64,000 nt of DNA from an uncultured delta proteobacterium. Lineage in GTDB: Bacteria; Desulfobacterota; Binatia; UBA9968. The position numbers were made by a program, and so were the translations under genes. Shown piece after piece: positions 7,064 to 34,346 of this stretch. Below the pieces are notes generated by a model. It had not been told where the DNA came from. It searched no databases and saw nothing but the letters and a program-made list of their open reading frames with translations. How positions within the stretch are numbered: position 1 is the first letter of the stretch; every line of letters starts with the position of its first letter. The DNA lies in assembly GCA_963760795.1 (NCBI GenBank), contig CAVXEP010000005.1, positions 32,001-96,000 of the forward strand. The letters are read 5' to 3'.

Positions 7064-7090
7064 TTAGACGCCTCAGCCAGACAAAGGTTA
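7064..7090 (-). promoter_or_regulatory. Candidate autoregulatory ECF promoter
   Basis: Minus strand reads TAAC-N16-CGTCTAA, 40 nt upstream of the sigma ATG, matching the general AAC...CGT ECF pattern. Confidence 0.55.
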
Positions 7091-7546: not shown

Positions 7547-7570
7547 GTAGGGGGCGTATGGCATACGCCC
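7547..7570. repeat. GTAG-type REP-like hairpin
   Basis: GTAG followed by GGGCGTATG-G-CATACGCCC. Confidence 0.55.
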
Positions 7571-7798
7571 TGGGGCGGCGGAGCGGCGATCACTTGGATA
7601 GGAAATTCACCCAGACGCTCTAATGGACAATGGTCCCCTGAAGAAAATTGTTATCGCGAAGGTCGCTGGCAGCGTTCAAGAAACCTTCCCAGCGACAAGA
7701 TTGTTAGCCGGCGTGAAATCTTTGCTGCCCGCTGGCTGCGCCGGCGATTAACTCGGGGCATGAGAATAGCAAGGAGCAAAACGCGCCCCCATACGCTC

Positions 7799-8460: not shown

Positions 8461-8474
8461 ATTATTTTTCTAAC

Positions 8475-9916: not shown

Positions 9917-9934
9917 GGAAAGAAAATTCTTAGA

Positions 9935-10863
9935 CTATTTTTTGACCAAGGCCAAGACTTCGCGCGCCAGGCGCCTTTTGGCGGCGATATCACCCATGCG
10001 AATATTGGTGCAGCTCGGCATAACTTTGACTGCCTCGACCGCCGGCACGGCAGCACGATCTTCATCGGCAATCAGCAGCGTATCGAGAAAGTCGGCGTAA
10101 CAGCCAGCGACACCCGCAGCGGAAGCAGCGAAACCGCTGGCGACCATGAGCTTATGCGCCGGGCCGGAAATCGCCGCGCCACCGATGATCGGACTCACAC
10201 CGACCACCGGAGCGCTGAATCTGTTTGAGCGCCGCGCGAATTCCTGGAACCGCGAGAATCGGGCCGATGCTGGTGATCGGGTTGCTCGGACAAACGATGA
10301 TCGCCGCGGCGACTGCTGAATCGCGTCCAACACACCCGGCGCCGGCTGGCTTGCACGGCGCCGACGAAATGGACTGAAGTCACTTCGCGTGCCCAGCGCT
10401 CCTTGACGAAGAATTCCTGAAAGGAAAGCTCCCCCTGGGGCGTCCGCACGCGCGTCTCGACGCGGTCGTCAGACATCGGCAAGATTCTCGACTGAACTCC
10501 TAACCGTCGGCGAATGCGCTCGGTCACTTCAGACAGTTTCAGCCCTTCGTTGAGCAACTGGGTCCGCGTGATATGGGTCGCCAAATCTTTATCGCCGAGA
10601 TTGAACCACGCGTCATTGCCGAGCCGGCGCAGCTGCTCCAGCGCTGTGAAAGTGTCGCCGCGAATTCCCCAGCCCTTCTCACTGTCGCTCAAGTCCGCCA
10701 GCGTGTAAGTGATCGTGTCGATATCCGGCGATACGTACAGGCCGTGAAAAACCGCATCGTCGCCGGTGTTACAGATAATCGTCAGCTCGGCTGGATCGAT
10801 CTCAGCGGCCAAGCCTTCGATGAGTTTTGCACCGCCGGTGCCGCCGGTGAGAACGACCAGCAT
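9935..10863 (-). CDS. cofD: 2-phospho-L-lactate transferase; apparent frameshifts near 10345, 10312 and 10215
   Basis: LTGGTGGAK, NTGDD, SPDIDT, LGDKDLATH, SFQEFFV, CPSNPITSIGPIL and GVSPIIGG; ATG overlaps the cofG stop (TGATG). Confidence 0.9.
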
Positions 10864-12086: not shown

Positions 12087-12225
12087 CTGTTGTGTTTGAA
12101 TATCCAATTGACCGCCGGTATTCAAACCAGCGGCGAAGCGCGCCGAGCCGGCCAATTCCGGTTGCCCTTGAGACTTTCGCTGTGGTAGGTCTCGTGGTGT
12201 CGAGAAACTCGGGGAGGATATTACC

Positions 12226-13428
12226 ATGGACAACTTCGATAACGTTCTGGTCGTCGACGCGGACGGCCATGTTTATGAAGGAAATATCGACTTGCGACCG
12301 CGCATGCCGGAAAAGTGGCGCTCCCAGGCGCCGATTAACCTGAAAGACAACGAGGGCAACGGGCGCATGTTGCTCGAAGGCCGCATGTGGTCCGCCTCCC
12401 AGGGTCTCGGCCCCGGCGTCTCCGGTCCGATGACCGAGAAAGCACGCGGCTTTCGCGAAGGCATGGTCGACCCGCTGGCAAGGCTCAAAGACATGGACGC
12501 CGAAGGCATCGACGTCGCCATATTATTCGGCACCCAGATCGCCCTCACCGTCAACGGCTTGATGAGCAAAGAACTGTCCGCCGTGCTTTGCCACGCCTGC
12601 AACGATTGGTTGATGGAATACTGCTCGGCCGAGCCGAAAAGATTGCTCGGCGTCGGCCTGATTCCTTGCCAAGATCCCGCAGCCGCGGTGAAGGAATTGG
12701 AGTATTTGAAAAAAGCCGGCGCGGTCACGGCGATGCTGCCGACCAACGTCTACGGCTTGAACAACATGGGCGACAAGATGTTCGACCCGATCTATGAATG
12801 CGCCCAAGCCATCGGCATGACGCTGAGCGTCCATCCGCAAACCGGCCACGACGGTGTGCCCGGCGTTTCCGGCGTCATGGGCGCCGGCAGCGAGCGCTTT
12901 CGAAAATACGTCTACGTCCATATGACCGCGTTTCCCTTTGAACTGATGATCGCCATGATGCACATGATCGGCGAAGGCGTGTTCGATCGCTTCCCGAAAC
13001 TCAAGGTCGGCTTCATGGAGGGCGGCGCCGGATGGCTGCCGTTCTGGGCCGAACGCTTCGATGAACATATCGAAAAGCTCGCGCCGCAAATGCCCGAGTT
13101 AAAACGCCGGCCGAGTGAGATCATCAAAAGCAAGCAAATCGTCCTCACCTGCGAATCCGAAGAAACCGGTCTCGACCGCGTATTTGCCGCCAATGGCGAG
13201 GATACCGTGCTCTACGCTTCGGATTACTGCCATTGGGATTGCCACTTCCCCTACTCGGTGAAAGACGTGGTCGACAGCCAAGACCTGAGCTTCGCCCAGA
13301 AAGAAAAATTGCTTGGCAAGAACGCCGTTGACTTCTTCGAGCTGAAAAATCTGCCGAAGCCCAATGCGCTCAAGATCGCTCACACCAGCTGGGCCAACGG
13401 CGATCAACCTAAAGTCGCCATGGCCTGA
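12226..13428 (+). CDS. Amidohydrolase family protein
   Basis: VDADGH, DMDAEGIDVAILF, CNDW, FMEGGAGW and YASDYCHWD; GGAGG RBS. Confidence 0.9.
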   Translation: MDNFDNVLVVDADGHVYEGNIDLRPRMPEKWRSQAPINLKDNEGNGRMLLEGRMWSASQGLGPGVSGPMTEKARGFREGMVDPLARLKDMDAEGIDVAILFGTQIALTVNGLMSKELSAVLCHACNDWLMEYCSAEPKRLLGVGLIPCQDPAAAVKELEYLKKAGAVTAMLPTNVYGLNNMGDKMFDPIYECAQAIGMTLSVHPQTGHDGVPGVSGVMGAGSERFRKYVYVHMTAFPFELMIAMMHMIGEGVFDRFPKLKVGFMEGGAGWLPFWAERFDEHIEKLAPQMPELKRRPSEIIKSKQIVLTCESEETGLDRVFAANGEDTVLYASDYCHWDCHFPYSVKDVVDSQDLSFAQKEKLLGKNAVDFFELKNLPKPNALKIAHTSWANGDQPKVAMA

Positions 13429-17752: not shown

Positions 17753-20011
17753 CTAGAAAAGCGTCGCACTTGCGTGCGTTGCCAAGGCGCCGATCAGCCT
17801 TTCTTTAAGCCCGGTATTGCGAATCTCGACTCTGACGTTGCGGATCGCCATGCCGAGCGCTTTGCGGCTGCCGACGACGATGACGAGCTTTTTGCCGCGC
17901 GTCACCGCGGTGTAAAGGATGCTGCGGTAGAGCATGATGTAGTGCGAAGTGTGCAGCGGTAAGATCACCACGGGATATTCACTGCCCTGGCTTTTGTGAA
18001 TCGAGGTCGCGTAGGCCAGACTGATCTCATCCCACTCGTCGGCCTCGTACTCGACGACTCGTTCGTCATAGTCGACGCGAATCTTGGCATCGTCGCGGTC
18101 GATGGAGACAATCCGTCCGAGATCGCCGTTGAAAACCGCCTTGTCGTAGTTGTTGCGCAGCTGCATGACCTTGTCGCGCACGCGTAAAGTCATACCCGGC
18201 CGCTCGATCGCTTGGCCGGTTGGATTGAAGAGCGCTTGCAAATCCCGATTGAGTTGAATCGTGCCGAGTAAGCCGCGGTGCATGGGCGTCAGGAGCTGCA
18301 CCGACTGGACGATCTGTTCCGGCGGCGCGCCGAGCCATTGCGGGATGCGCTCGCGCAACAGCTCTTTGATCGTTTCAAGAATCTCTTCCTCGCTCTCGCG
18401 GGCGATGAAATCGAAGTCGCGCCGCTCGCGCGCATCGGAAAACTCCAAGTTCTGTCCCTGGAGTATCCGGTGGGCATTGACCACGATCAAGCTCTGTTGC
18501 TCCTGGCGAAAAATGCGCCGCAGGGTCGCCACCGGAACCGACTGTGAATCGATCAAATCCTTGAGCACGCTGCCCGGCCCCACCGAGGGCAACTGGTCGA
18601 CATCGCCGACGAGAATTAAGTGCGTGTGCGGCTCGATGGCGGCCAACAAATGATCCATCAGCGCAATGTCGACCATGGACGCCTCGTCGACGATGATGAC
18701 ATCCACTTGCAGCGGCTTATCGGCATTGCGTTGAAAGCCGCCTTCGCGCGGATTGTATTCGAGCAGGCGGTGCAGTGTGGTGGCATCTTCGCCGGTACTC
18801 TCGGTCATCCGTTTGGCCGCCCGCCCAGTCGGCGCGGCGAGAGCGAAAGTAACCTTGGCGCGCCGCAGGATCGCCAGCAACGACATCAGCAAGGTGGTTT
18901 TACCCGTCCCCGGCCCGCCGGTGATGACAAAAACCTTTTCCTGCAATGCCCGTCGCGCCGCGCTGACCTGATCTTCATCGAGGTTGATCGGCAGGTCGGC
19001 GAACAGCGCACCACTCAACAGATCGATGGCGCCGCGCCTAACGCCCTGGTCTTTCTCCCACGGCCGCGGCCGCCGTTCGCCTTGGAGAAACGACGGAGTG
19101 GTCAAGAGCCGGGCAAGCGCTTGGGCTACTCTTTGCTCCGCCTCGAACAAATTCACCAGATAAACGCGGGTGAGGTGCGGATCGCGCTCGCTCTGCAAAA
19201 TGACCTCGCCGCGCTCAGCGAGTTTCTCCACCGCGATATCGATACGCTCGTCATCGACTTCGAGCAGTTGGCAAGCGCCTTTTGCCAGCGCGGTTAACGG
19301 CAAGTAGCAGTGACCGCGCTCCGACGATTCGCGCAACACATGCAGCACACCGGCCTGCACCCGCAGCGGAAAATCGCCGCGGATGCCGATATGGCCGGCG
19401 AGCCGGTCGGCGAGCAGAAAGCCGATGCCATGCACCTGCTGCGCGAGCGCATAGGGATTTTCTCTAACCTGAGCGACCGTGTCGGCGCCAAACACTCGAT
19501 AAATGCGCAGCGCCAGGGAAGCGCCGACGCCGTGCCCCTGAAGAAATACCATGACATCCTGCATGCCGCGCTGGGCCTGCCAGGCTTCCATGATCCGGCG
19601 TGCGCGCACCTCGCCGATACCGTCGACATCGAGAACCCGCAGCGGTTCTTCGGATAACACCCGCAGGGTCTCCAAACCGAAGGCGCCGACCAAACGCTTG
19701 GCGTAGGTCGGCCCGATCCCTTTGATCATGCCCGAGCCGAGATACTTTTCGATACCTTCGAGGGTCGCCGGATCGACCTTGGTCCAATGGTCGACCAGAA
19801 ATTGCAGGCCGTAACGGGCATGGCGCTTCCACACGCCGGTGACTTTGATCTCCTCACCTTCTGAAAGCGGAAACAGCACGCCGACCACCGTAGCGGCCGG
19901 TCCGCCGTCTTCGTCCAGGCGCGCCACCGTGTAGTGGCTCTCAGGATGCTGATAGGTGATCCGGCTGATGGTGCCCTGGATGGAAGTGAGTTCGTTCTGT
20001 TTATCCGCCAA
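17753..20011 (-). CDS. recD2: ATP-dependent RecD2-like DNA helicase
   Basis: IKGIGP HhH motifs, Walker A ITGGPGTGKT, VDEASMVD, GDVDQLPSVGPG, and YATSIHKSQGSE. Confidence 0.95.
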   Translation of the reverse strand: MADKQNELTSIQGTISRITYQHPESHYTVARLDEDGGPAATVVGVLFPLSEGEEIKVTGVWKRHARYGLQFLVDHWTKVDPATLEGIEKYLGSGMIKGIGPTYAKRLVGAFGLETLRVLSEEPLRVLDVDGIGEVRARRIMEAWQAQRGMQDVMVFLQGHGVGASLALRIYRVFGADTVAQVRENPYALAQQVHGIGFLLADRLAGHIGIRGDFPLRVQAGVLHVLRESSERGHCYLPLTALAKGACQLLEVDDERIDIAVEKLAERGEVILQSERDPHLTRVYLVNLFEAEQRVAQALARLLTTPSFLQGERRPRPWEKDQGVRRGAIDLLSGALFADLPINLDEDQVSAARRALQEKVFVITGGPGTGKTTLLMSLLAILRRAKVTFALAAPTGRAAKRMTESTGEDATTLHRLLEYNPREGGFQRNADKPLQVDVIIVDEASMVDIALMDHLLAAIEPHTHLILVGDVDQLPSVGPGSVLKDLIDSQSVPVATLRRIFRQEQQSLIVVNAHRILQGQNLEFSDARERRDFDFIARESEEEILETIKELLRERIPQWLGAPPEQIVQSVQLLTPMHRGLLGTIQLNRDLQALFNPTGQAIERPGMTLRVRDKVMQLRNNYDKAVFNGDLGRIVSIDRDDAKIRVDYDERVVEYEADEWDEISLAYATSIHKSQGSEYPVVILPLHTSHYIMLYRSILYTAVTRGKKLVIVVGSRKALGMAIRNVRVEIRNTGLKERLIGALATHASATLF

Positions 20012-20235
20012 AAAATACTCCCTATGGAGGCGATCCTACTTGAAAGCGGTCAAAGCGTAAATCGCAGCCCTTGCCTTTTCCCGGTGGGCCGCTAGAATTC
20101 CTATCAACCTCCATGCCCACTCGCAGCCCACGCCCGCGGCCCCGACAACATCGGTCGATTTGCTAGTACCACCACGCTGTTTTGCGCTTCGCTCGCTGCA
20201 TCGAAGCGCAAATCCCAAACGAGGAGACGGCATCG

Positions 20236-21549
20236 ATGACTCTCGATAATTTTTGGTTTCAAGCGATTTTGATCCTCGCGTTGATTTTCGCCAACGGCTT
20301 CTTTGCCGCTTCCGAGATCGCCATGATCGCCATGCGCAAAAGTCGCATCGAAGCCCTGGTCGACAAAGGGGTTAAGGCCGCCGCGGCGGTGGCCCGGCTG
20401 AAGGCCGACCCCGATCGCTTCCTCGCCACCGTACAGATCGGCGTCACCGTGGTCAGCTCCTTCGCCTCCGCCCTCGGCGGCGCCGCAGCCATCGGTTATC
20501 TCAAACCGGAGATCGAAGCTTTGCCGTTCGCTCTGGCTGCCCGCTGGGCGGATGCCATCGCGCTGACCATCGTCGTCTTGCCGATCACTTATTTTTCGCT
20601 GGTTCTTGGCGAGCTCGTGCCAAAATCTTTAGCTTTGCGGTTTTCCGAGCCCATCGCCTGCTTCGTTGCCCCGCCCATTGAATTGCTGGCGCGGGTCAGC
20701 GCGATCTTCGTCAGGTTCCTGACCGCGTCGAGCAATCTGGTACTCAAACTTTTCGGCGGCAAGGATGCCGGCAGCGTCAGTTTCATCTCCGTCGACGAAG
20801 TAAAATCATTGATTCGCGAAGGCGCCGCCAGGGGCATCTTCAACGAGACCGAGAAGGAATTGATCCATAGCGTATTTGAGTTTACCGACACGCCGGTCAA
20901 AGCGGTCATGAAACCGCGCACCGAGATCCATGCCATCGAAGGGCACGCATCACTGGCCGAGGTGGCAAAGAATTTTGTCGACAGCGGCTTTTCCCGCGTG
21001 CCGGTTTACGAAGGCGATCTCGATAAAGTTGTCGGCATTCTCTACAACAAAGATGTCTTCAAAGCTTTGCAGGAGCACAGCGACTTTCACGTGCGCGATC
21101 ATTTGCATCCGGCGTTCTTCGTCCCCAGCACCCTGCCGATCAGCGAACTGTTAAAACAGCTGCAACGGCGCCGCCTGGGCATGGCTTTGGTAGTCAACGA
21201 ATTCGGCGAAATCGAAGGTCTCGCCACGCTGGAAGACTTGATCGAGGAAATCGTCGGCGAGATCCGTGACGAATACGACCGCGAAGAACGCGGGCCCGTG
21301 GAGCGCCTGCCCGACGGGTCGATGGTGGTCGCCGGCTCGGCACTGCTCAAGGATCTCAAAATCGATTTCGACCTGCCATTCGAAGAATCGCCGGACTATC
21401 ACACCCTCGCCGGCTTACTGCTGGCGCGATTGAAAAGAATCCCGCGCGGCGGCGAATGGATCGATGAATTCGGCTACAAACTCACCATCGTCGACATGGA
21501 AGGCCGGCGCATCGTCAAAATCAAAGTCGAGAAAAGCATGGCGGCGTAG
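20236..21549 (+). CDS. Hemolysin/CNNM family protein (DUF21-CBS-CorC)
   Basis: NGFFAASEIA, LATVQIG, GELVPKSLA, GFSRVPVY and EDLIEEIVGEIRDEYD; GAGGAG RBS. Confidence 0.92.
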   Translation: MTLDNFWFQAILILALIFANGFFAASEIAMIAMRKSRIEALVDKGVKAAAAVARLKADPDRFLATVQIGVTVVSSFASALGGAAAIGYLKPEIEALPFALAARWADAIALTIVVLPITYFSLVLGELVPKSLALRFSEPIACFVAPPIELLARVSAIFVRFLTASSNLVLKLFGGKDAGSVSFISVDEVKSLIREGAARGIFNETEKELIHSVFEFTDTPVKAVMKPRTEIHAIEGHASLAEVAKNFVDSGFSRVPVYEGDLDKVVGILYNKDVFKALQEHSDFHVRDHLHPAFFVPSTLPISELLKQLQRRRLGMALVVNEFGEIEGLATLEDLIEEIVGEIRDEYDREERGPVERLPDGSMVVAGSALLKDLKIDFDLPFEESPDYHTLAGLLLARLKRIPRGGEWIDEFGYKLTIVDMEGRRIVKIKVEKSMAA

Positions 21550-21611
21550 AAACATGGGGCAATGGAGTATTGGGTGCGCCCAACACTCCATTACTCCATA
21601 ACTTCGGTTCT

Positions 21612-22028
21612 TCAGTAGCAGCGTATCTCGATCTCATTGCCGTCAGGATCGAGAAAATAGACTGAAGTCGCCTGGCCGCGCGCGCCCCAGCGCGACACCG
21701 GACCTTCGCGAATGGCGATCTGGTTTTTCTTTAGCTCTTCGATGACGCCGGCAAAGTCGCCAGCAGCGACAACTAAACAAACATGATTGAGGTTGCCGTC
21801 GACTTTTTCCGTAACCGATCGACTGTCAACGGGCTTACGCGGGAAAAGGTCGATGATCGTGGCGTCGTTGATACGCACGGACGGAAAACCGACCTTGCCG
21901 GCTCGGAACTGCTCGACCCGCTCGCCCTCCAGGCCCAAGACACCGGTGTAAAACTGCAAAGCCCGGTCGATGTCGCCGACATTGAGCACGATATGGTCGA
22001 GCGCGGTAATCTCAAAATGACCCATCAC
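21612..22028 (-). CDS. VOC (glyoxalase/bleomycin resistance) family protein
   Basis: LDHIVLNVGDIDRALQFYTGVLG, GPVSRWGARG and SVYFLDPDGNEIE. Confidence 0.9.
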   Translation of the reverse strand: MMGHFEITALDHIVLNVGDIDRALQFYTGVLGLEGERVEQFRAGKVGFPSVRINDATIIDLFPRKPVDSRSVTEKVDGNLNHVCLVVAAGDFAGVIEELKKNQIAIREGPVSRWGARGQATSVYFLDPDGNEIEIRCY

Positions 22029-22064: not shown

Positions 22065-23120
22065 CTATACTGCCATCGCCGCCAGCTCGTTTAATAAAGC
22101 CCGAACTTCCTTGGGCGTGCCCACGGTGATGCGCAAGCAGTCGCGCAAACCGGGCGCGTCGAAATAGCGCACCAAAATTTTTTGCCGCTTCAGCTTCTCG
22201 TAGACCGGTTGCAAATTTTTGCCGCGTTGGCGCGCCAGAATGAAATTTGTATGGGACGGATAGACCTGATAGCCCAAGCGCTTGAGCCCGCTGGCGAGCC
22301 GCTGGCGGCTGCGCTGAATGCGCGCGGCATTGCGTTGCATCCAGGCCAGATCCTGGAGCGCCGCGGTGCCGGCGACGATGCTCAAACGATCGAGATTGTA
22401 GGAATCGCGCACCTTGTTCATGCCGGCGATAATTTCCGCCGACGCGAAGGCGAGACCGATGCGCATGCCGGCCAGCGAAAACGACTTGGACAAGGTGCGC
22501 AGGACAATCAGATTGGGCAGCTGGTGAATTAAGGGAATCGCCGACGCTCCTTCGCTGGCGGCAAAATCGACGTACGCCTCATCGACCACGAGTATGCCGG
22601 CAACTGCGCCGGCGAGCTTGACGATCTCCGGCAGCGGCACCAGTGTCCCGGACGGCGCATTGGGATTGCAAAGAAGCGTCAGCGCCGCACCTTGGCGTAC
22701 CAGCTCTTGTGGAATTGAAAAATCTTCTGGAAAAGGTACGCGTACCGCGATTCCCGCCTGGATCTCGACCAGCGTATCATAGAGCGAATAGGTCGGAACT
22801 GGATAAGCGACCCGGTCGCCGGGGCCGACGAAACAGCGCAGCATCATCGACAACAGCTCGTCCGAGCCGTTGCCCGCCATGATATTTTCTATTTTGACGC
22901 CATAGGCGGCGGCCGCCGCAGCGCACAACGGATCGCTCAGCGGCAGCGGATAGAGCCGCAACGAAGCATCGATCGCCCGGCGCAAGGCGGCGTAGACTTT
23001 GGGCGATGGCGGATAGGGATTCTCGTTGGTGTTGAGTTTGATTATGCCATCGTCGCGCGGCTGTTCGCCAGGAACGTAGCCTGACATCGCCTGGATGTTG
23101 GCGCGGAAATAGTTGGCCAT
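22065..23120 (-). CDS. hisC: Histidinol-phosphate aminotransferase
   Basis: YVPGEQP, KLNTNENPYPPS, CNPNAPSG, VDEAYVDF and the PLP-lysine motif RTLSKSFSLAGMRIG. Confidence 0.95.
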   Translation of the reverse strand: MANYFRANIQAMSGYVPGEQPRDDGIIKLNTNENPYPPSPKVYAALRRAIDASLRLYPLPLSDPLCAAAAAAYGVKIENIMAGNGSDELLSMMLRCFVGPGDRVAYPVPTYSLYDTLVEIQAGIAVRVPFPEDFSIPQELVRQGAALTLLCNPNAPSGTLVPLPEIVKLAGAVAGILVVDEAYVDFAASEGASAIPLIHQLPNLIVLRTLSKSFSLAGMRIGLAFASAEIIAGMNKVRDSYNLDRLSIVAGTAALQDLAWMQRNAARIQRSRQRLASGLKRLGYQVYPSHTNFILARQRGKNLQPVYEKLKRQKILVRYFDAPGLRDCLRITVGTPKEVRALLNELAAMAV

Positions 23121-23374
23121 GGCGCGGGATTCTAACCACACCCACGAGTGATTTCAAATTGCCCTATGGGGCTAGACAGTCCAAGGGTTACCTTGCTTTA
23201 CCTTGGGCGTCATCTGAACAGAAATAAAGGTTTTTCGGCTGCCCCCTGAAAACATTTTTGTCCGGCCATTCCCGAAATTGTCCAGAAATCCTCGCGCTTG
23301 CAGAATTCTTTGCTGAATTGCTCATTATGCCAATTGTAAGTAGCTGATTTTCAAACGACGCAGGTTTCCATCGG

Positions 23375-23390
23375 TGGCATGTTTTTGGCT
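23375..23390 (+). promoter_or_regulatory. Candidate sigma-54 promoter for the coiled-coil/KaiC-like operon
   Basis: TGGCATGTTTTTGGCT has GG-N10-GC spacing with one mismatch in the -12 element, ~90 nt upstream of ATG 23478. Confidence 0.3.
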
Positions 23391-23477
23391 AAGCTTGATG
23401 CTCGCAGGCCCTCCCGACAATCTATCAATTTGATTTTGCGGAAGAGATTAAGGTGGCAACGAGCAGTATTAAATAAA

Positions 23478-26400
23478 ATGGACGCACCTAAATATCAAAA
23501 AAGTGATCCGGCGATTCTTCTGCTCAACGAGATCGATATCCTGTTGGCGCAGACGCGTCTGATGGAGCTCTACCTCAAGCAAGCGCAGGCGACGGCGGCC
23601 AATGAAAATGCGCGAATTCACGAACAGTATGAATCCCAGTTGGCGACCCTGCGCGCCGATCTCGCCGACAAAGAGCGGCAATTGCAACAACGCCCAGTCA
23701 TCGCCGTCGAGCGCAATCTGAGCGAAACCATCGAACTGCTGCAACGCGAGCTCGGCGAAAAGCAACAAATTCTTTCCAGCCAGGAAGTCACATTCCAGCG
23801 CTCAACTAGCGAAATCGCCGCGCTGCAAGGCCGTATCGCCCAACTGGAAGCCGACAACAGCGCTGCCGTAAGCGCCGCTCGCGCGTCCAACGCAATCCGC
23901 GAAGGCCTTACCGCCGACGTCGCCGCAATCAATCAGGAGCTGGAGAGAAACCGGCGCGAGTTGCACCACCAGCAGCTCGCCGCGTTGGAACTCGAAAACA
24001 GCTTGCGCGAGCAGCTGCAATTGCTGCAAACCCAAGTCGGCGAAAAACAAGCCTACGCCTTTAGCGCCGACGACAAACTAGGCAAAGCGCAGCAAGAGAT
24101 CGCGGCGTTGCATCAGCATCTGGGCTCGCTTCACACAATTCAAGATGAACTTCAGTCGAGAGCGGCGCGTGAGCTCGAACAGACGCGCGGCCGTTTTGAA
24201 AATGAACTGGCGAGCCTGCGCAGCGCCCTCGCCGAACGCGATCGCTCGGTGCTGCAGAACCAGGTCGCACTACTTGAAATCGAGCGGGGTCTAAGAAGCG
24301 AGATCGACACCCTGCGCAGCGAGCTCGAGCAAAGACAAGCCGCCCTCGGACTACAAGACGAAGATCTGCGCGCCGCCGGCGCGCGGATCTCTGCGCTCCA
24401 ACAAACAGTAGCCGACCTTGAGTTGGCCCATCGCCAAGCAACCGCCGCCACCGCAGAAATGGATATGCTGCGGCGCTCATTGGCCGAAGAGGTAGCGAAC
24501 CTCCAGCATGAGGTCGCGGTCAAAGAAAAGGAACTGACCCAGCGCTACGAAGCGGTGACCGCCGTCGAGCTCGCCTTGCACGGCCGGATACAAGTTTTGC
24601 AGCAGGAACTCGCACGCGCGCACGAAGCCTCGAATGCCCAAGAAGTCGCGCTGCAAAACCACGCCATTGAGACCGCCGCCTTACAAAGCCGTATTGCTGA
24701 CCTGGAACGCTCCCAAGCCGACACCAGTTCGATCGACGCCGCCCGCCAGCAACTGGAAAGCGATCTTAATCGCCTGCGCACAGCCCTCGGACAGAAGGAA
24801 TATTTACTGGCCGAACGTGAGCGCGCCATCAGCGATCTCGAGGCGCGCTTCGGCGCAGAAATCACCACGCTGCAGCAACAGCTGGAGCAAGAACGCAGCG
24901 CCGCCGCGCATACCCATGACGAAGTACTCCAAGCGCGCAGCGAACTCGCCGCCAGCCGCGAGAAACTTGAAGCCCAGCTCAGCCATAAAGACGCTGAAAT
25001 CGGCAGCCTGCGCGCCAGCGCCAATCAACAAAGCGAGCAACTATCCAACCAAGTTAATGACTTGCAGCGGCAACTGGCCGAAGGCGAAACTACCGTCGCC
25101 AACCTGGAAGCGCGCTTGGGCGTGGAAATCGCCACGCTGCAGCAACAGCTGGAGCAAGAACGCAGCGCTGCCGCGCGAACCCACGATGAGTTACTCCAAG
25201 CGCTCAACGAACTCGCCGCCAGCCGCGAGCAACTTAAAGCTCAGCTCCGCCATAAAGACGATGAACTCGGCAGCCTGCGCGCCAGTGCCTTTCAACAAAA
25301 CGAGCAACTGTCCAACCAAGTTAGTGACTTGCAGCGGCAATTGGCCGAGCGCGAAACTACCGTCGCCAACCTAGAAGCGCGCTTGGGCGTGGAAATCGCC
25401 ACGCTGCAGCAACAGCTGGAACAAGAACGCAGCGCTGCCGCGCGAACCCATGACGAGTTACTCCACGCCCGCAACGAACTCGCCGCCAGCCGCGAGCAAC
25501 TTGAAGCCCAGCTCCGTCATAAAGACGCTGAAATCGGCAGCCTGCGCGCCGGCGCCATTCAACAAAACGAGCAACTGTCCAACCAAGTTAGTGAGTTGCA
25601 GCGCCAACTGGCCGAGCGCGAGACGACCGTCGCCAACCTGGAAGCACGTTTGGGCGTGGAAATTACCACCTTGCACCAGCAGCTGGAGCAAGAACGCACA
25701 GCCGCCGCGCGAACCCAAGACGAACTACTCCAGGCGCGCAACAAATTCGCCGCCACTCGCGAACAACTTGAAGCCCAGCTCAGCCATAAAGACGATGAAA
25801 TCGGCAGCCTGCGCGCCGGCGCCATTCAACAAAACGAGCAACTGTCCAACCAAGTTAGTGAGTTGCAGCGCCAACTGGCCGAGCGCGAGACGACCGTCGC
25901 CAACCTGGAAGCACGTTTGGGCGTGGAAATTACCACCTTGCACCAGCAGCTGGAGCAAGAACGCACAGCCGCCGCGCGAACCCATGACGAGTTACTCCAC
26001 GCGCGCAACGAACTCGCCGCCACTCGCGAGCAACTTGAAGCCCAGCTCCGTCATAAAGACGCTGAAATCGGCAGCCTGCGCGCCGGCGCCATTCAACAAA
26101 GCGAGCAACTGTCCAACCAAGTTAGTGACTTGCAGCGGCAATTGGCTGAGCGCGAGGCTAGCGTCGCCAACCTGGAAACGCGCGTGGGCGCAGAAATCAC
26201 CACCCTGCACCAGCAGCTGGAGCAAGAACGCAGCGCCGCCGCGCAAACCCATGTCGAACTACTCCAGGCGCGCAACGAGCTCACCGCCACTCGCGAGCAA
26301 CTTGAAGCCCAGCTCCGGCATAAAGACGATGAACTCGGCAGCCTGCGCGCCAGCGCCATTCAACCAGAGCGAGCAACTGTCCAACCGCATCGATGAACTG

Positions 26401-28339
26401 CAATTTCAATTGGCCGAGAAACAGCTGTTGGCCGAGCAATACGCAATTGAACTCGATCATTTACGAACTTCCGTCACCAGGCTCAACGAGCAGCTCAACG
26501 AAGAAGCCACGAATCATGCGCAGGCCCTCGGCCTTTGGCAAGACTCCCAGGCCCAACACAGCACTGAGATCGCTCAGCTAACAACCGCGCGCGACGAGCT
26601 ATTATATAGTCAGACCGCGCTGGAAGTTCAGCTCGACCAGGCACGCGGCGCCAACGCCGCTTTGCGCGGCGAGCTGCAGGAATCGAGAAACCGCGTTGGC
26701 GAATTTGACGCGCTGCTAAAAAGCAGCCAAACCGCCATGGCCGATGTCGCAGCCGAGCGCGCTCGGCTGCGCACCGAACTGGAAAACCTTGACGCGCTCC
26801 ATAAGCAGACCAAGGCCGATGCCGCCCGCGATCTTGCCCAGGGCCGCGACGCCTTGGAAAGCGAACTCAGCGCCCTGCGCAACGAGCTGCAACAAAAAGC
26901 CTGGTCGCTGGCACAACACCAAGCCAGTGTCGAGAACCTGGCGCAGATCCACCGCGAGCAGATGCGCAAACTGGAAGCGCGGCTGACCGAGCAACAACCG
27001 GTCACGGAACAGCAGGCGCGAGAATTGGCACAGGCTGTCAGCCAAGCCAATGCCTTGCGGCTTCAGGTACGAAGAACTCCAAGCCGCCCTGCGCCAAGCC
27101 GAGGCCGACGGCGCAAGCCAGGCCGAGCAGATTCGTCAGGAATACGCCGCCCGGGTGGAAACCGTCAACTCGCTGCTGGAAACAAAGTCGGCGGAAATGG
27201 CCAACAGCGGCGCGGCCCGAGCCAACGTCGAAGAGTCGTTGCGTGGCGAACTCAGCCACCTGCGCAGCGAAATGCAATCACGCACCGCGGCGCTGCAGAG
27301 CCGGGAGGACGAACTCAACCGCGTGCGCGCGGAAATGACCTCGGTGCAGAATCGTCTCGTGCAGTTGGAATCGATCAGCGCGCGCACCGAAAGCGAAGCG
27401 CGCGAGATCAGCCAAGCCAAGAGCGGTCTGGAGAGCGAACTCACCGCCCTGCGCAACGAACTGCAACAAGGATCTTCCGCGGTGGCGCAACATCAGACAG
27501 CGATGGATGATCTTGCAGCGCGCCATCGCAGCCAGGTGGAACAACTTGAAGCGAATCTACGCGAGCAGCATAGAGCGAGCGAAGAGCATCGACAGGAAGT
27601 TGACCAAGCGCAAGCGCAGATCGCCCTGTTGCACAGCCGGATCGAAGAGCTGCAAAACGCATTGCAGCAGACCGAGTTGAGCGCCAACAGCCGCACCGAA
27701 CAGCTGCGCCAAGAGTATGCAGCGCGCGTCGATGCGCTCAAACGCGAACTGGGCGAACATTCCGCCCAGCTTCAGGACCGCGCCAGCGCTAATTCCGACA
27801 GCGAGCAAGTTCTACACAGCGAGATCGCCCGGCTGATCGGCGAAGCCCAAGAACGAAATCAGATCCTGGAAAGCCGCAACGATGAATTGGTGCGGGTTAA
27901 AAACGACCTGGACGGTTTGGCCGAGCGCTTCAGTCAATTAGAGTCGCACGCCGTCCAAGCCGAAAGTAGCGCCAGCGGTGAAGCCGCGAGTATGCGCATC
28001 GGGTTTCAGGCGCAGTTAGCGCTGCTGCAGGCCGAACTCAGTCAGAAGGAATGGGCCCTGGAAGAGCGCCAAGCGATCATCGCCGGAATCGAACAAGAAC
28101 ATCGCCGGCAGCTCGACGCCTTGCGCCAGCAGTTAGCCGAGGAAGAACAGTCAACCGTGCCGGCCGACAACGGATTTGTCATGGGCGATCCCAACTTGAC
28201 GGAAGCCCAGCGGGAAAAGCTACTCAAACTCGACGACATGGTCAAAGCGATGCGCACCGGTGAGGATCACAGCGTTCCAGCATTCTCGGGACGGCGTTGG
28301 CAAAGCGGCTTCGGATGGAAGCGGCGCTGGCGCTCGTGA
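23478..28339 (+). CDS. Giant coiled-coil protein, ~1,619 aa after correcting apparent +1 frameshifts near 26365 and 27069; contains six 89-aa tandem repeats
   Basis: Three ORF-track pieces (23379..26396, 25450..27510, 27050..28339) join into one E/Q/L/A/R-rich, proline-poor helical chain. No signal peptide, TM helix or ATPase motif is visible. Confidence 0.8.
24807..26409 (+). repeat. Six tandem 267-bp coding repeats
   Basis: Units begin at 24807, 25074, 25341, 25608, 25875 and 26142 (LAERETTVANLEARLGVEI...LSNQVSDLQRQ); 25529-25717 is identical to 25796-25984. Confidence 0.95.
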
Positions 28340-28384
28340 CGCCTGGTAAAATCTGGCTAACAGCCGAAAGCGGCAACGCGAAGG

Positions 28385-29149
28385 ATGACGATGATTCAAA
28401 CACAACGAGTAACCAGTGGAATCAAAGGCTTGGACCCATTGATCGAAGGCGGCTTCCCCAAGGGTCGGTCGATCCTGGTGACCGGCGAGCCAGGGACCGG
28501 TAAGACTATTTTTGCTCTCCAGTTTCTCGCCGAGGGATTAGCACGCGGCGAAAAATGCATCTTCGTCACCGCCGACGAAGGACCTCTGGACGTGCTCGAA
28601 CAAGCGGCGTCGATGGGTTGGGACTTCGAGCGCCATGCCGAGCAAAAAGATTTGTCGATCCTTAACGCCGGAACCTATTTAAGTTCACTGCCGGGCGCCG
28701 GCCGTGAGCGCCAATTCGACATTCAGAAAGCGGTGAGCGACCTGGCGATCTTCGTCAACCAGCTTGGCGCCGAGCGATTGGTTCTCGATCCCGCCGGGCC
28801 GTTTGTCCTGTTGCGCGACGTCGCCACACGTATCCAGGATCAAACCCGCTTGCTGATCAAATTGCTGCGTTCTTCGATGTCGACCACCAACCTTCTCACC
28901 TCCTATGCAGTACCGAGAACCGGCGAGCGCAGCATGCATGGCATCGAAGAGTACATGGTCGCCGGCGCCATCGTCTTGGAGATGATTTGGCGCAACGATG
29001 GCGCGATGGGGCGCAGCCTGATCGTCGAAAAAATGCGCTGTACCGATGTCAAACCGACCCAACTGGAGTTCGACATCGTCAAGGGTGAGGGTTTGGTGGT
29101 ACTGCCGAGGCCTGACTACCGGTCGCAGAAAATCTCTAGTCATGGCTGA
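28385..29149 (+). CDS. KaiC/RAD55-like RecA-fold ATPase (single domain, first)
   Basis: TSGIKGLDPLIEGGFP, Walker A GEPGTGKT, MGWDF, GIEEY and VEKMR. Confidence 0.9.
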   Translation: MTMIQTQRVTSGIKGLDPLIEGGFPKGRSILVTGEPGTGKTIFALQFLAEGLARGEKCIFVTADEGPLDVLEQAASMGWDFERHAEQKDLSILNAGTYLSSLPGAGRERQFDIQKAVSDLAIFVNQLGAERLVLDPAGPFVLLRDVATRIQDQTRLLIKLLRSSMSTTNLLTSYAVPRTGERSMHGIEEYMVAGAIVLEMIWRNDGAMGRSLIVEKMRCTDVKPTQLEFDIVKGEGLVVLPRPDYRSQKISSHG

Positions 29150-29924
29150 CGAATGCATCGCCACCGGCATCACCGGCTTGGATGCGCTGCTGCGCGGTGG
29201 AGTTAGCCGCGGGCGCACTTATCTCTTTGCCGGCGAAGCGGGCACCGGTAAAACCATCGCCTGTTTGCAGTTAGTCACTACGGGCCTCAAAGCTGGCGAT
29301 AAGGCGGTCTACGTTACCGTCGACGAACGACCTTCGGAGATCTTGGAGGCCGCCGCGGCATTGGGTTGGGATCTCCAAACCTATATCCAAGAAAAGCAAT
29401 TGATCATCCTCGACGCGTCGCCCTACTTCGGTGCCCGCGGCGGCGGCGAAAAAGGCATCGATCCGCAAAAGATCGTCGCCGATCTCGGCAATTATGTCAG
29501 ACGCCTGGGCGCGACGCTATTGATTATCGATCCGGTAACGCCGTTTAGTCTCCCCCCCGACGCCAGTAGTCCAGCGCAAGATCAAGCGCGCACGCTGATC
29601 CAACTGGTGCAAACGCAGATTAGCGTCACTAACATTTTCACGGCGCAGCGTTGCCCCGACGGCGGCCCATCGTCAAGTGTGGCGATTGAAGAACATCTCG
29701 CCACCGGTGTGCTGGTATTTAAAATGACCGAAACCGCAGCCGGCTATGAGCGCACGGTAACCGTCAAAAAAATGCGCAGCATCGCCACCGCACCGGTGAA
29801 ATACCGCTTCACAATGCAAAAAGACCAAGGCATCGTCCTCGACCTGCCCTGCAGCCTGGCTACCGCATCGAGCGCGACGCCACCCATGTTCGAATACTTC
29901 GATCCGTCCACGCTGCGAAACTAG
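29142..29924 (+). CDS. KaiC/RAD55-like RecA-fold ATPase (single domain, second)
   Basis: ATGITGLDALLRGG, Walker A GEAGTGKT, LGWDL, AIEEHL and VKKMRS; ATG overlaps the preceding ORF by 8 bp. Confidence 0.88.
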   Translation: MADECIATGITGLDALLRGGVSRGRTYLFAGEAGTGKTIACLQLVTTGLKAGDKAVYVTVDERPSEILEAAAALGWDLQTYIQEKQLIILDASPYFGARGGGEKGIDPQKIVADLGNYVRRLGATLLIIDPVTPFSLPPDASSPAQDQARTLIQLVQTQISVTNIFTAQRCPDGGPSSSVAIEEHLATGVLVFKMTETAAGYERTVTVKKMRSIATAPVKYRFTMQKDQGIVLDLPCSLATASSATPPMFEYFDPSTLRN

Positions 29925-29928
29925 CGGC

Positions 29929-29955
29929 CGGCGGGCGCGAAGAGCGCACCCGCCG
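29929..29955 (+). terminator. GC-rich hairpin after the second ATPase ORF (possible terminator)
   Basis: CGGCGGG...CCCGCCG stem; weak U-tract. Confidence 0.35.
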
Positions 29956-29992
29956 TTGGAATCCGCGATTTCTCCCGGTTCAAGCGGTTTTC

Positions 29993-30021
29993 TTGACAGC
30001 CCGCCGAAGGATGCTTAAATT
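29993..30021 (+). promoter_or_regulatory. Sigma-70-like promoter of clpB
   Basis: TTGACA-N17-TAAATT, 24 nt upstream of the clpB ATG. Confidence 0.55.
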
Positions 30022-30045
30022 CCCCGCAAGCTGCGGAGAAATCAT

Positions 30046-32673
30046 ATGAATTTAGAAAAACTCACCACCAAATCTCAAGAGGCATTGCGCGACGCCCAGT
30101 CACTGGCCGAGAAGCGCAACCACCAGGCCCTCGATGTCGAACACCTGCTTTTCTCACTATTTGGACAGAAGGAAGGCGTGGTCCTGTCGCTGTTGCAAAA
30201 GCTCGGCGTGCCGCTGACCCAGGTGACCGAAAGACTGCAAAAAGCCCTCGACCGTCTGCCTCAAGTGACCGGCGCCAGCGGCCAAAGCTATATCACGCCA
30301 CGGCTCAAGAAAGTCATCGAAAGCGCCGAGTCCGAAGCCGAAGCCTTGAAAGACGAGTATGTCTCCACCGAGCACTTGCTGCTTTCCATTGTGCAAGACA
30401 GCGGCGAAGCTGGGAAAGTCCTCAAGGAGCTGGGCGCAACTCGCGATAAAATTCTCAACGCCCTGGTCAGCATTCGCGGCTCTCAACGCATCACCGATCC
30501 GAATCCAGAAGAAAAATATCAGTCCTTGGAAAAGTATGGCCGCGATCTCACCGACCTCGCTCGCAAGGGCAAGCTCGATCCGGTGATTGGCCGCGACGAC
30601 GAGATTCGCCGGGTGATTCAAGTGCTATCGCGCCGGACTAAGAACAATCCGGTGCTGATCGGCGAGCCGGGCGTCGGTAAGACCGCCATCGTGGAAGGCC
30701 TCGCCTTGCGCATCGTCAACGGCGATGTCCCGGAAGGATTGAAGGACAAAAAACTTATCTCGCTGGATCTCAGCGCCTTGGTCGCCGGGGCGAAGTTCCG
30801 CGGCGAGTTTGAAGACCGACTCAAAGCGGTTTTGAAGGAAGTCACCGAGGCCAACGGCCAGATCGTGCTGTTCATCGATGAGCTGCATACATTAGTCGGC
30901 GCCGGCGCCGCCGAAGGCGCCATGGATGCATCGAATATGCTCAAGCCCGCCCTGGCGCGCGGCGAGCTGCGCTGCGTCGGCGCGACGACGCTGGACGAGT
31001 ACCGCAAACGAGTGGAAAAGGATCCGGCGCTGGAACGACGCTTTCAACAAGTCTACGTCGGCGAGCCTTCGGTGCAAGACACCATCGCCATCCTGCGCGG
31101 CTTGAAGGAACGCTACGAAGTCCATCACGGTGTGCGCATTACCGACCCGGCGATAATTGCCGCGGCGACGCTGTCGCACCGCTATATCAGCGACCGCTTC
31201 CTGCCAGACAAAGCCATCGACTTGATCGACGAAGCCGCGTCGCGGCTGCGCATTGAAATCGACAGCATGCCCATGGAAATCGACGAGGTCGAGCGCAAGA
31301 TCATGCAATTGGAGATCGAGCGCCAGGCACTCAAGCGCGAAGAGGACAAAGCGTCAATGGATCGTTTGGCGCAGCTCGAACGGGATATTCACAATTTGAA
31401 GGAGGCCTCGAGCGGTCTCAAAACTCATTGGCAGAATGAAAAAGCCGCCATCCAACAGCTGCGTGGCATCAAGGAAAAAATCGAAGCGACCAAGGTGGAA
31501 GAACAAAAAGCCCAACGCGAGGGCAACCTCAACAAGGCGGCTGAGCTGCGCTACGGCACCTTGACGCAGTTGCAGAAAGATAGCGATGCGGCCAATCAGA
31601 AACTCGCCGAACTGCAAACCCATCAGAAGATGCTCAAGGAAGAGGTCGACGCCGAAGATATCGCCGAAGTGGTGGCCAAATGGACCGGCGTTCCGGTGTC
31701 GAAAATGCTCGAAGGCGAACTCCAAAAGTTACTTAAAATGGAAGAGCGGCTAAAGCTCCGCGTCGTCGGCCAGGAGAACGCGATTATCGCGGTGTCCAAC
31801 GCCGTGCGCCGCGCCCGCGCCGGCTTGCAAGATAGCAACCGGCCGATCGGCTCGTTTATCTTTCTCGGTCCCACCGGCGTCGGTAAGACTGAACTCTGCC
31901 GGGCGTTGGCCGAGTTTCTCTTCGACGACGAGCAGGCCATCGTCCGCCTCGACATGTCGGAGTACATGGAAAAACATTCGGTATCGCGGTTGATCGGCGC
32001 CCCGCCGGGTTATGTCGGCTACGATGAAGGCGGGCAACTGACCGAAGCGGTGCGTCGCCGGCCTTACTCCGTGGTGTTGTTCGACGAAATCGAGAAGGCC
32101 CATCCCGACGTGTTCAACGCGCTTTTACAGCTGCTTGAAGATGGCCGCATGACCGATGGCCAAGGGCGCACCGTCGATTTTAAAAACACGGTCATCATCA
32201 TGACGTCGAACCTCGGCAGCCAGTACATCCAAGAGCTCGCCGGCAAAGACCGTAAGCAGATGGAAGACTATGTCGGCAACGCCTTGCGCGAGGCCTTCAA
32301 GCCGGAGTTTTTGAACCGGGTCGACGAGACGATCATTTTTAGCAGCCTCGGCCGCGAAGAGATCAAGTCGATCGTCGATATTCAGCTCAAACGGCTGCGG
32401 CAGAATTTGGCCAACCGCAAGATGGCGCTGGAGATCACCGCCCCAGCCAAAGCGTTGCTAGCCGACAAGGGCTACGATCCGGTCTACGGCGCGCGCCCGC
32501 TCAAGCGCACCATCCAGCGATTGATTCAGGATCCGCTGGCGGTTAAGATCCTCGCTGGAGAGTTCAAGGAAGGCGACACTGTGAAAGTCGAAGTGGAAGA
32601 CGACGAGCTCAGCTTCACCCATGGTCAGCCGCTGGCGAACGACGCGACCTTCGAGCAAAGGACCCTGCATTGA
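30046..32673 (+). CDS. clpB: ATP-dependent chaperone ClpB
   Basis: [22 protein letters not shown], middle-domain [15 protein letters not shown] and YGARPLKR; 875 aa. Confidence 0.98.
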
Positions 32674-32908: not shown

Positions 32909-34346
32909 ATGGCAGATTCAACTTTCAGCGACGAACAGCAACGCCATGCCCGGCTGGTGCTTTATCAAGTGTCCCTCGGTCTCGCCGTGGTGGCGATCAA
33001 CCACCGCGCCATTCAAGTCGCCTTGCCCACCCTCACCCATGTTTTTCATAGCGATCTGTCGTTCATTCAGTGGGTTTTGTTGGTCTATGATCTCTGCGTT
33101 ATCGGCTTGGTCCTGACGTTGGGCAGACTCGGCGACCTGTTCGGCCGCAAATGGATTTATATTTCTGGCTTTTTGATCTTCGTTCTAGGTTCGCTGTTTT
33201 GCGGTTTGGCGCAGTCATCCACTCAGCTAATTTTGTTCCGCGTGCTCCAAGGCATCGGCGGCGCCATGATCATGGCCAACGGCCGTGCCCTGGTCACCGT
33301 CAACTCGCCGGCGTCCGAGCGCGGCAAGGCGCTGGGCTTCACATCCATGGCGTTTCACGTCGGCTACATCACCGGCCCGACGCTGGGCGGCTTCATCATC
33401 GACGCGGTGGGCTGGCGTTGGGTGTTCTTTCTCACCGTTCCCATCGGCCTGACTTGCGCCTATTTCGGCTGGAAAATTCTCAAAGAGCGCACCGTCAGCG
33501 AAGGGCCGGTCCAAGTGGATTTCGCCGGTGCCGCGTATCTGCTGCTGACCAACATCTGTTTCCTCTATGCGCTCAACCGGCTGCCCCACCGCGGTATCCA
33601 CGACACCCTGGTCGTGGTCTTTTTCTGTCGTCGCCGCCGTGACGTTGTTTCTGTTCATTCGCACCGAACAAAAAGCAACCACGCCGATTCTGAGTTTATC
33701 TTTGTTCCGCAACCGGCTGTTCACTGCGGCCAATCTGAGCCTGTTCTTTTTGACTTCAACGCAGGCCGCCGTGAGCGTCTTGATCCCGTTTTATTTGCAG
33801 AACCTGATGGGCTTCACGCCGACCCAGATGGGCTGGATCTTGATCGGCGGCTCGGTCGTGATCATCGTGTTAGCCCCGGTGGCTGGCCGCCTGTCCGACC
33901 GCCTCGGCTCACGCATACTTTGCACCGTCGGCGCCGCGATCATGATCGTCGGCCAGTATTTCATCGGTTCGTTGACTCTACAATCGACGATTTTCCAAAT
34001 GGTCATGCCGCAAATATTGATCGGCTTGGGTTGGGCGCTGTTCAACTCGCCCAATCAGAGCGCCATCATGGGCACCGTACCACTCGATAAAGTCGGCGCA
34101 GCCTCGGGTATGACGCTCACTACGGCGAGAATTGGCGGCGCCATGGGCATCGCCATATCCGGCGCGATCATGACCTACGCCTTGGGCGCCAACGGCCTCA
34201 CCCCGGCGCAGATCGAGTCGCCAGCCAGTTGGGCCGCCGCGCCAGAGATATTTTTGAAATCGTTCAGCTTCACCACCCATTTGATCAATACCTTTGCGAT
34301 CTTCGCGGTGGTCTTCGCCGCCATGCGCGGCCCACGCAAAGATTAG
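32909..34346 (+). CDS. MFS transporter (DHA2/EmrB-like); apparent frameshift near 33622
   Basis: GRLGDLFGRK, FRVLQGIGGA, GPTLGG, WRWVFF and GRLSDRLGSR; the break falls in a T-run. Confidence 0.88.

Follow-up and report, generated by a model that had tools for sequence, protein, structure and literature searches.

A length-variable coiled-coil gene linked to single-domain KaiC-like ATPase genes in one family of uncultured Binatia

We analyzed a 64,000-nucleotide stretch of DNA (contig CAVXEP010000005.1, positions 32,001 to 96,000; hereafter the window) from an uncultured soil bacterium of the Binatia. Between the divergent hisC and clpB, a gene for a long coiled-coil protein (the coil gene) stands directly upstream of two overlapping genes for single-domain KaiC-family ATPases, KaiC1 and KaiC2. 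The order hisC<>coil–KaiC1–(KaiC2)–clpB, whose conservation the original prediction had left to be checked, recurs in one Binatia family: Among family genomes with a match to the coil C terminus at E ≤ 1e-10, 32 of 33 have, by coordinates, a KaiC1-type gene immediately after the coil gene on one contig. The coil gene is under purifying selection. Its most widely kept part is an Arg/Trp C-terminal tail, and long forms also keep a short, amphipathic N-terminal helix. We tentatively interpret the locus as a lineage-specific accessory module of this family, in which the coil would serve a KaiC-like ATPase switch as an adaptor or tether of expandable length, in the manner of ArlX–ArlH.

The coil protein and its two ATPase neighbors

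Window positions 23142–30045 hold three plus-strand genes, with hisC and clpB as borders:

22065–23141, minus strand: hisC (histidinol-phosphate transaminase), left border, divergent; TIGR01141, 334.3 bits against a cut-off of 276.55; Pfam Aminotran_1_2.
23478–28339, plus strand: coil gene, ~1,619 codons with two single extra bases discounted; three in-frame pieces in the window.
28385–29149, plus strand: KaiC1, single-domain KaiC-family ATPase, 254 amino acids (aa); PF06745, E = 8.9e-56.
29142–29924, plus strand: KaiC2, single-domain KaiC-family ATPase, 260 aa; PF06745, E = 7.8e-49.
29993–30021, plus strand: sigma-70-like promoter match before clpB, TTGACA-17-TAAATT, 10 of 12 matches (a consensus match only).
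30046–32673, plus strand: clpB, right border and conserved neighbor; TIGR03346, 1409 bits against a cut-off of 1232.

The coil stop lies 45 nucleotides (nt) before the KaiC1 start, KaiC1 and KaiC2 overlap by 8 nt (ATGGCTGA), and 121 nt separate KaiC2 from clpB. The original prediction had described a unit between divergent hisC and the clpB promoter, with two overlapping KaiC-family reading frames 45 bp after the coil gene; all of these elements are present where it placed them.

The coil gene runs from ATG 23478, where its orthologs also begin, to a stop at 28339 (4,862 nt). In the window it is divided among open reading frames (ORFs) at 23379–26396, 25450–27510, and 27050–28339, in three frames. 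Two +1 shifts, at ~26364/5 and ~27069, account for the division: Translation carries on sensibly across both, and beyond these single-base sites all three in-frame pieces are stop-free. The predicted length of ~1,619 aa is reached by removing the two bases from the window sequence. Features within the gene are as follows:

23505–23600, plus strand: conserved N-terminal helix motif (..DPAILLLNEIDILLAQTRLMELYLKQAQA..), from 11 orthologs; helical in the AlphaFold2 (AF2) model of a short ortholog.
24843–26386, plus strand: tandem repeat array with a 267-nt (89-codon) unit, 5.8 copies at 90% match (Tandem Repeats Finder).
26361–26370, plus strand: first frameshift site, CAACCAGAGC here against one C fewer in repeat copies; frame 0 to 1.
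27066–27071, plus strand: second frameshift site; frame 1 to 2.
27950–28291, plus strand: conserved C-terminal coil module and linker (..FQAQLALLQAELSQKEWALEE.. and FVMGDPNLTEAQRE..); alignment A8, the query that finds the family.
28292–28336, plus strand: invariant basic Arg/Trp tail RRWQSGFGWKRRWRS, the last 15 residues, net charge +6, at the extreme C terminus; alignments A2/A6 and A8.

Below, G000 is the window's own genome, other G-numbers are genomes of relatives, L-numbers are loci, and X-numbers are public sequencing runs. The frameshifts were checked with contigs of four public runs (X1, X5, X7, and the RNA run X15) placed on 26300–30100 at 90–99% likeness. At 27069 one base is missing in every covering contig (X1, 4.8/4.8; X5, 3.43/3.43; X15, 7.69/7.69); the site is outside the cover of X7. 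At 26356–26369 one base is missing in part of the contigs of X1 (3.5/13.2, 4.1/16.8, and 5.57/25.5) and of X5 (6.2/9.75 and 3.55/14.9), and the remaining contigs there probably represent different copies of the repeat. The runs cannot be assumed to share the window's sample: They place near-identical genes (90–99%) in frame, which does not in itself prove the window wrong. The coil gene is a single unbroken ORF in eight relatives. It is split in G017 and G019 as well, both assemblies in few contigs. Both frameshifts in the window are very probably assembly indels.

Another few-contig assembly, G018, shows its clpB region (L043, G018:C13, 9775–12428) in six ORF pieces, an indel-rich picture that fits indel errors and counsels caution over frameshifts in similar assemblies. 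A 521-aa KaiC1–KaiC2 "fusion" ORF in G018 was treated as an assembly artifact, because KaiC2 there lies in two frames and clpB of the same contig in six pieces.

The coil is strongly heptad-patterned. The 3.5-residue hydrophobic periodicity of its three pieces stands above shuffled sequences at z = 18.8, 9.7, and 14.4, and the protein has 7 prolines per 1,613 residues. Its maximum 19-residue hydropathy is 1.11, hence no transmembrane helix. No head domain was found with Pfam and NCBIfam models, which gave coil-type matches only: SMC and Rad50 models scored 20–47 bits against cut-offs of 567–1,087, over coil parts only, and the Filament rod model PF00038 scored 16.5 bits against a cut-off of 40. 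The expected lack of an SMC head and a transmembrane helix is thereby borne out. DUF1664 (49.8 bits) and ADIP (35.4 bits) exceeded their whole-protein cut-offs, with no single stretch passing. In the ESM Atlas, residues 250–429 of the last coil piece matched generic coiled-coil clusters only (best score 0.91). Net charge is −53 and −23 for the rod pieces and +6 for the C-terminal tail.

Conservation is concentrated at the ends. Eleven full-length orthologs share M1, L15, L16, E18, I19, L22, Q25, E30, one rod leucine, and the tail residues R,R,W...K,R,R,W; across 15 C-terminal regions (A8) the invariant tail residues are only W, K, R, and W. We define the coil family by a tail of the form [RK][RK]W-x(5-8)-K[RN]RW[KRH] at the extreme C terminus together with a KaiC1-type gene downstream, and the window has both. 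The tail motif terminates 77 of the 150 best library representatives. In the window's own genome the strict motif occurs once, and looser matches are mostly alternative-frame ORFs; a general sorting signal was therefore rejected as an explanation of the tail. The AF2 model of a natural 281-aa ortholog (alignment of 11; predicted local distance difference test [pLDDT] 80, predicted template-modeling score 0.28) has helices at 8–87, 102–227, and 240–255 and a disordered tail. Ratios of nonsynonymous to synonymous substitution (dN/dS) were 0.20–0.38 for the coil, 0.08–0.09 for KaiC1, 0.09–0.22 for KaiC2, 0.06 for clpB, and 0.12–0.18 for hisC.

KaiC1 and KaiC2 score 189.3 and 166.6 bits with PF06745 (cut-off 26.6). 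KaiC1 orthologs are 71–93% identical and mostly 240–243 aa, and the KaiC1 start may be ATG 28391. Across orthologs KaiC1 conserves GEPGTGKT / TADE / LVLDP / EKMR and KaiC2 conserves GxxGTGKT / VDERP / LIIDP / KKMR, which we take to be, in order, the Walker A motif, the catalytic acidic pair (D-E, after strand 2), the Walker B motif, and the conserved Arg (KMR) region. The ATPases had been called atypical. With Walker A, D-E, Walker B, and KMR conserved they are unusual only in being single-domain, and judged by these motifs both are probably ordinary, active single-domain KaiC-like ATPases. KaiC2 orthologs also keep, after a variable linker, an acidic/aromatic C-terminal motif (..P-MFEYFDPS.., window 29800–29921) that could be a docking peptide.

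In searches of the PDB, the KaiC1 ortholog alignment A1 matched KaiC CI domains at E = 7e-55 and the archaeal single-domain proteins PH0186, SSO2452, and PH0284 at E = 9e-42 to 1e-32. For KaiC2 the CI domain was also the best match, with 113 bits against 25 bits for CII. A split KaiC, with KaiC1 as CI and KaiC2 as CII, was rejected because both ATPases align best to CI. More specific family models remained below their cut-offs for KaiC1 and KaiC2, respectively: the KaiC equivalog models NF006799 (133.6 and 122.3 against 408) and TIGR02655 (91.1 and 106.8 against 546), ArlH (36.2 and 35.9 against 215), FlaH (36.6 and 34.1 against 194), and RadA/Sms TIGR00416 (30.9 and 25.8 against 403), with the RadB model likewise below cut-off. 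The GvpD model PF07088 gave 24.4 bits over residues 26–63 only (cut-off 24), and no gas-vesicle genes stand among the annotated neighbors; the ATPases are not counted as GvpD. A separate 496-aa RadA-like ORF lies at G000:C5:18592 in the window's own genome.

In a tree, the K1, K2, and K3 clades (K3 for a third ATPase, KaiC3, described below) and the sister-family gene form one unresolved group, and the receiver-fused KaiC domain lies far off. The longer KaiC1 homologs listed are ~460–800 aa, mostly ~500; PF06745 is present in each, and identity does not exceed 35% over most of the query length, apart from one homolog with 41% over a third. For KaiC1, AF2 modeling from A1 gave a mean pLDDT of just 55, because the alignment was too shallow. 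A complex prediction of the L035 KaiC1 (A3) with the 281-aa coil ortholog (A2) scored 0.00 and 0.00 against a mark of 0.32; run without controls, it speaks neither for nor against binding. The claim that kaiA and kaiB are missing stands for the locus, but the genome does have kaiB: Two copies (PF07689, 92 and 80 bits) lie downstream of a double-domain kaiC, itself in several frames, at G000:C29:284186-286631 (L094, L095). This KaiBC cluster is unrelated to the locus, and kaiB is confined to it.

Gene order, coil length, and a second pair across the family

Within the genus, KaiC1 orthologs at ≥73% identity were found in 19 of 24 relatives. In all 12 genus loci fetched, a heptad-rich ORF lies between hisC and KaiC1, with clpB downstream. 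A set of 20 loci with KaiC1 at ≥63% identity, which overlaps in part with the genomes of those 12, has KaiC2 in 16. The coil was upstream in 17 of the 19 assessable loci found by KaiC1; of the other two, one holds a short broken form and one a 45-codon remnant. A query with the coil C-terminal region (129 residues) matched in 37 of 90 family genomes, 7 of 23 genera, and 24 of 30 genus genomes. In the 33rd of the adjacency genomes (G499) each of the two genes lies at the end of a contig; the coil of G005 is divided between two contig ends. Genomes G004, G462, G476, and G459 are included in these tallies; G004 and G462 are among the 33, and without them adjacency stands at 30 of 31.

Beyond the family the signal fades. 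In 400 sampled genomes of the phylum the coil C-terminal domain gave only weak coil-type matches in 9 (E = 8e-5 to 8e-4). Against 1.84 billion library representatives the C-terminal profile matched 194 proteins at E ≤ 1e-3, 124 at E ≤ 1e-10, and 85 at E ≤ 1e-30. The coil family is small and, in the genomes searched, restricted to one family of uncultured Binatia. Its members appear in public records as "hypothetical protein" or under coil-driven misnomers such as "chromosome segregation ATPase." KaiC-like genes of the KaiC1/KaiC2 group are present in 88 of 90 family genomes and all 23 genera.

In the sister family the hisC slot contains, besides a KaiC-like gene, a fusion of receiver and KaiC domains and a histidine kinase with receiver and PAS domains, and clpB is absent there. 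This gene content points to a signaling role. Receiver-KaiC fusions (PF00072 with PF06745/DUF7504) follow the KaiC-like gene in L026, L070, L071, L082, and L088, from the sister family and some genera of the same family. Descent of KaiC2 from the sister family's receiver-KaiC fusion was rejected, that domain being on a very long, separate branch.

Coil length varies widely: 281 to 1,685 aa in the loci read, 857 to 1,896 aa among 82 database homologs in the searched length band, and 269 to 1,564 aa among complete orthologs (M start, N motif, and tail; 18 of 150 library representatives), with a shortest tail-bearing form of ~90 aa (G463). The 267-nt repeat is present in 5.8 copies in the window, 3.2–3.7 in the nearest relative (G019), and ~2 in the next (G013). 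From the wide length range and the differing repeat copies we conclude that coil length is barely constrained. Two minimal coil genes were seen, at L034:2400-2950 and L076:2800-3600: one a 45-codon remnant with the N-terminal LLLNEIE motif, the other ~90 codons encoding a short coil and tail only. In G021 (L015, G021:C6:16000-34000, ~633–12929) the coil gene seems interrupted, with an N-terminal ORF at the locus start and a 315-aa C-terminal piece directly before KaiC1; ~12 kb of unrelated ORFs separate the pieces, and a mobile insertion is possible.

The window's own genome has a second pair of this kind. At G000:C3:80347-83000 (L025:8348-11015, minus strand) another coiled-coil gene lies 113 nt upstream of the gene for KaiC3, a single-domain protein of 240 aa that is 47% identical to KaiC1. 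This second coil is ~575–612 aa long and heptad-rich, has no Pfam hit, and ends in ..KRAELREKSGRWKVRP (tail ..EKSGRWKVRP). The pair is divergent from a receiver (CheY-like)-CheD-CheA-CheW-MCP-MCP cluster, with histidine kinases near. It is kept in G013, G003, G019, G017, and G456, and the tail is kept even where the rest of the coil is at 34% identity. In G475 the hisC slot itself holds a coil of the second type. A KaiC3 search of the 400 sampled phylum genomes gave 1 genome at E ≤ 1e-30. Whether co-inherited or convergent, the arrangement of a basic-Trp-tailed coil gene immediately before a gene for a single-domain KaiC-like protein is found at two loci.

Candidate roles and rival explanations

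The closest counterpart we found is archaeal. In one report (PMC5019145), ArlX (FlaX) is a membrane-anchored coiled coil whose non-coil C-terminal part binds ArlH (FlaH), and ArlH is a KaiC-like ATPase with one RecA-fold domain, proposed to assemble into hexamers in a nucleotide-dependent way; the same report gives PH0186 and PH0284 as hexameric rings. Like ArlX–ArlH, the locus combines a coiled-coil protein with a single-domain KaiC-like ATPase, and the second pair in the same genome adjoins chemotaxis genes. Unlike it, the locus is bacterial and has no arlI/arlJ or pilus genes near; and its coil has a basic Trp tail instead of a transmembrane helix and is hypervariable in length. Because model scores fall below the cut-offs and archaellum genes are missing, the locus is not counted as a member of that system.

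On the reading we tentatively prefer, a tether for an ATPase switch, the coil gene would encode an acidic cytoplasmic rod whose length drifts freely through tandem duplication, an expandable spacer rather than a ruler. KaiC1 and KaiC2 would form nucleotide-dependent rings, as solved single-domain homologs suggest, and work as a KaiC-like signal-transduction switch, which the coil, as adaptor or tether, would position. The basic Trp-rich tail may hold the anionic inner membrane or dock on the ATPase. The data as a whole fit a coil whose functional parts are its ends and a coupled KaiC-like switch with a signaling flavor. A bolder version, which we hold doubtful though worth stating, is a new bacterial positioning device and counterpart of ArlX–ArlH, with a freely evolvable coil tether, an invariant Arg/Trp tail on the membrane or a partner, dedicated single-domain KaiC-like rings, and a pair of paralogs of the device in each genome, one of them connected to a chemosensory cluster.

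Several observations weigh against a coupled module. All genomes compared are kin, so the linkage counts are not independent, and clpB is a neighbor as constant as the coil. Of 20 further loci fetched from other family genera, 16 are the hisC/clpB slot with ATPases kept, and in these the coil is long in 3, short or broken in 3, and not seen in 10; the sister family likewise has no coil in its hisC slot. Since the ATPases are kept without it, the coil is dispensable for core ATPase function, and the slot survey and tree make the ATPase the old resident and the coil a later, dispensable addition. No coil-KaiC fusion was found among 65 KaiC1 homologs of 446–2,000 aa. A hint of expression comes from RNA run X15, whose contigs match stretches of the coil gene and of KaiC1 but do not span the gene junctions; uncovered parts carry no meaning. 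Homology of the two coil families is not shown (hhalign, 2% for the N-terminal and 14% for the C-terminal ends), so that the likeness of their tails may be chance. Membrane contact of the tail is a possibility suggested by its composition.

It is a real possibility, if clearly second to the tether, that coil and ATPases are neighbors without shared function: The coil would then be a scaffold protein like Scy, FilP, or crescentin, cytoskeletal or polar and working on its own, and the KaiC-like ATPases an independent signaling unit that chances to share the hisC–clpB slot. The coil-free slot in most family genera and the sister family, repeated loss or decay of the coil, and the lack of fusion forms favor this. 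It has to account for the tight spacing and adjacency in 32 of 33 genomes, the second coil and KaiC-like pair at another locus, and the second-type coil in the hisC slot of G475. The reading as a filament or molecular ruler under ATPase control, with repeat-set length as the functional parameter, draws on the long, nearly proline-free rod with its recent repeat expansion and on the ATPase linkage, but is unlikely: Length ranges ~twenty-fold (~90 to 1,896 aa) despite near-identical ATPases, closest relatives differ in repeat copy number, and the AF2 model of a short form has helix breaks. The original prediction had inferred such a filament, a polar scaffold, or a ruler. Complete orthologs of 269 to 1,564 aa (library representatives) and 281 to 1,685 aa (loci read), a ~90-aa form, differing copy number, and frequent absence of the coil do not sustain the filament or ruler, and the length variation contradicts it. 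We think it rather improbable that the locus is a ClpB-coupled stress module whose ATPases and coil, the latter for instance a heat-labile sensor, would control or aid the disaggregase. In family loci clpB comes immediately after the KaiC-like gene or gene pair, but it has its own promoter-like site and a 121-nt gap, the sister family has KaiC-like genes without clpB, the second pair adjoins chemotaxis rather than chaperone genes, and synteny among kin is weak evidence.

A decaying pseudogene, with both frameshifts real and the coil no longer made, would explain the three frames in the window and recall the broken short forms in other genera. It is nonetheless very unlikely, given that the extra bases are missing from near-identical contigs of three other runs, the in-frame pieces are stop-free apart from the two single-base sites, dN/dS against G019 is 0.22–0.38, and the six-piece clpB of the few-contig G018 assembly fits indel errors. 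Anti-phage defense by an SMC-like coil with an ATPase (Lamassu-, Wadjet-, or PARIS-like) can call on weak PADLOC matches: The coil hits the coiled-coil portions of LmuB and JetC at E = 1e-9 to 5e-3, and KaiC1 hits mad8 at E = 8e-7. We consider it scarcely credible: The matches extend over nothing but coil or P-loop stretches, the locus has neither a nuclease nor an effector domain, and the locus is fixed between housekeeping genes family-wide and not in a variable island. PADLOC-DB 2.0 gave no specific defense-system match, only these partial ones.

Other known systems resemble the locus in part. Circadian KaiC/KaiBC shares PF06745, and KaiC CI domains are the closest solved structures to the locus ATPases, which are nevertheless single-domain (not CI+CII), both align to CI, and have no kaiB adjacent. 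The archaeal proteins PH0186, PH0284, and SSO2452 are alike in size, single RecA-like domain, and motifs, whereas the locus genes are bacterial, coil-paired, and form their own clades K1, K2, and K3. In one source a homolog bears the COG0467 name "RecA-superfamily ATPases implicated in signal transduction," and Makarova et al. in 2017 reportedly proposed single-domain KaiC-like ATPases as signaling hubs. Long bacterial coiled-coil scaffolds include Scy/FilP, crescentin, and Ccrp; these too are cytoplasmic and heptad-rich, with length variation driven by repeats, but the locus coil is no member by sequence and has dedicated KaiC-like ATPase genes downstream, an invariant Arg/Trp tail, and a range of one Binatia family. 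SMC-, Rad50-, and MukB-type proteins share the very long antiparallel-type coil composition, and the locus coil differs in having neither head nor hinge domains. The literature searched contained no description of a coil and KaiC-like pairing; with no paper found and no defense or known-operon model fitting, the view that this is not a described system holds.

Single-domain KaiC-like ATPases are widespread, and almost none has a known bacterial partner. Here conserved gene linkage defines a candidate partner with two short, sharply conserved ends. Were the link true, a KaiC-like switch working with a coiled-coil scaffold would have its first bacterial example. The locus would also give a way into the role of such ATPases outside clocks and archaella, and a natural experiment on how far a coiled-coil spacer can lengthen or shorten and still function. 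Were it false, the locus would remain a well-documented new protein family, mislabeled "chromosome segregation ATPase" in public records. A corollary of the bolder positioning-device version is that the natural size series in the slot between hisC and the KaiC-like gene, from ~90 to ~1,900 residues, would record how a coiled-coil gene grew through tandem duplication.

Transcription signals and flanking genes

The KaiC1 and KaiC2 genes are probably co-transcribed. No terminator-like site was found on the plus strand at or between the junctions of coil, KaiC1, and KaiC2; the only plus-strand matches in the unit are a weak one at 28762–28775, inside KaiC1, and one at 23182–23195, upstream of the coil start. 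Rfam gave no match within 22900–30100. No mobile-element or defense genes are among the neighbors at 17753–22028 and 32909–34090. These two flanks carry housekeeping genes: a RecD2-type helicase, a CNNM/CorC-type transporter with CBS domains, a glyoxalase-fold protein, and an MFS transporter.

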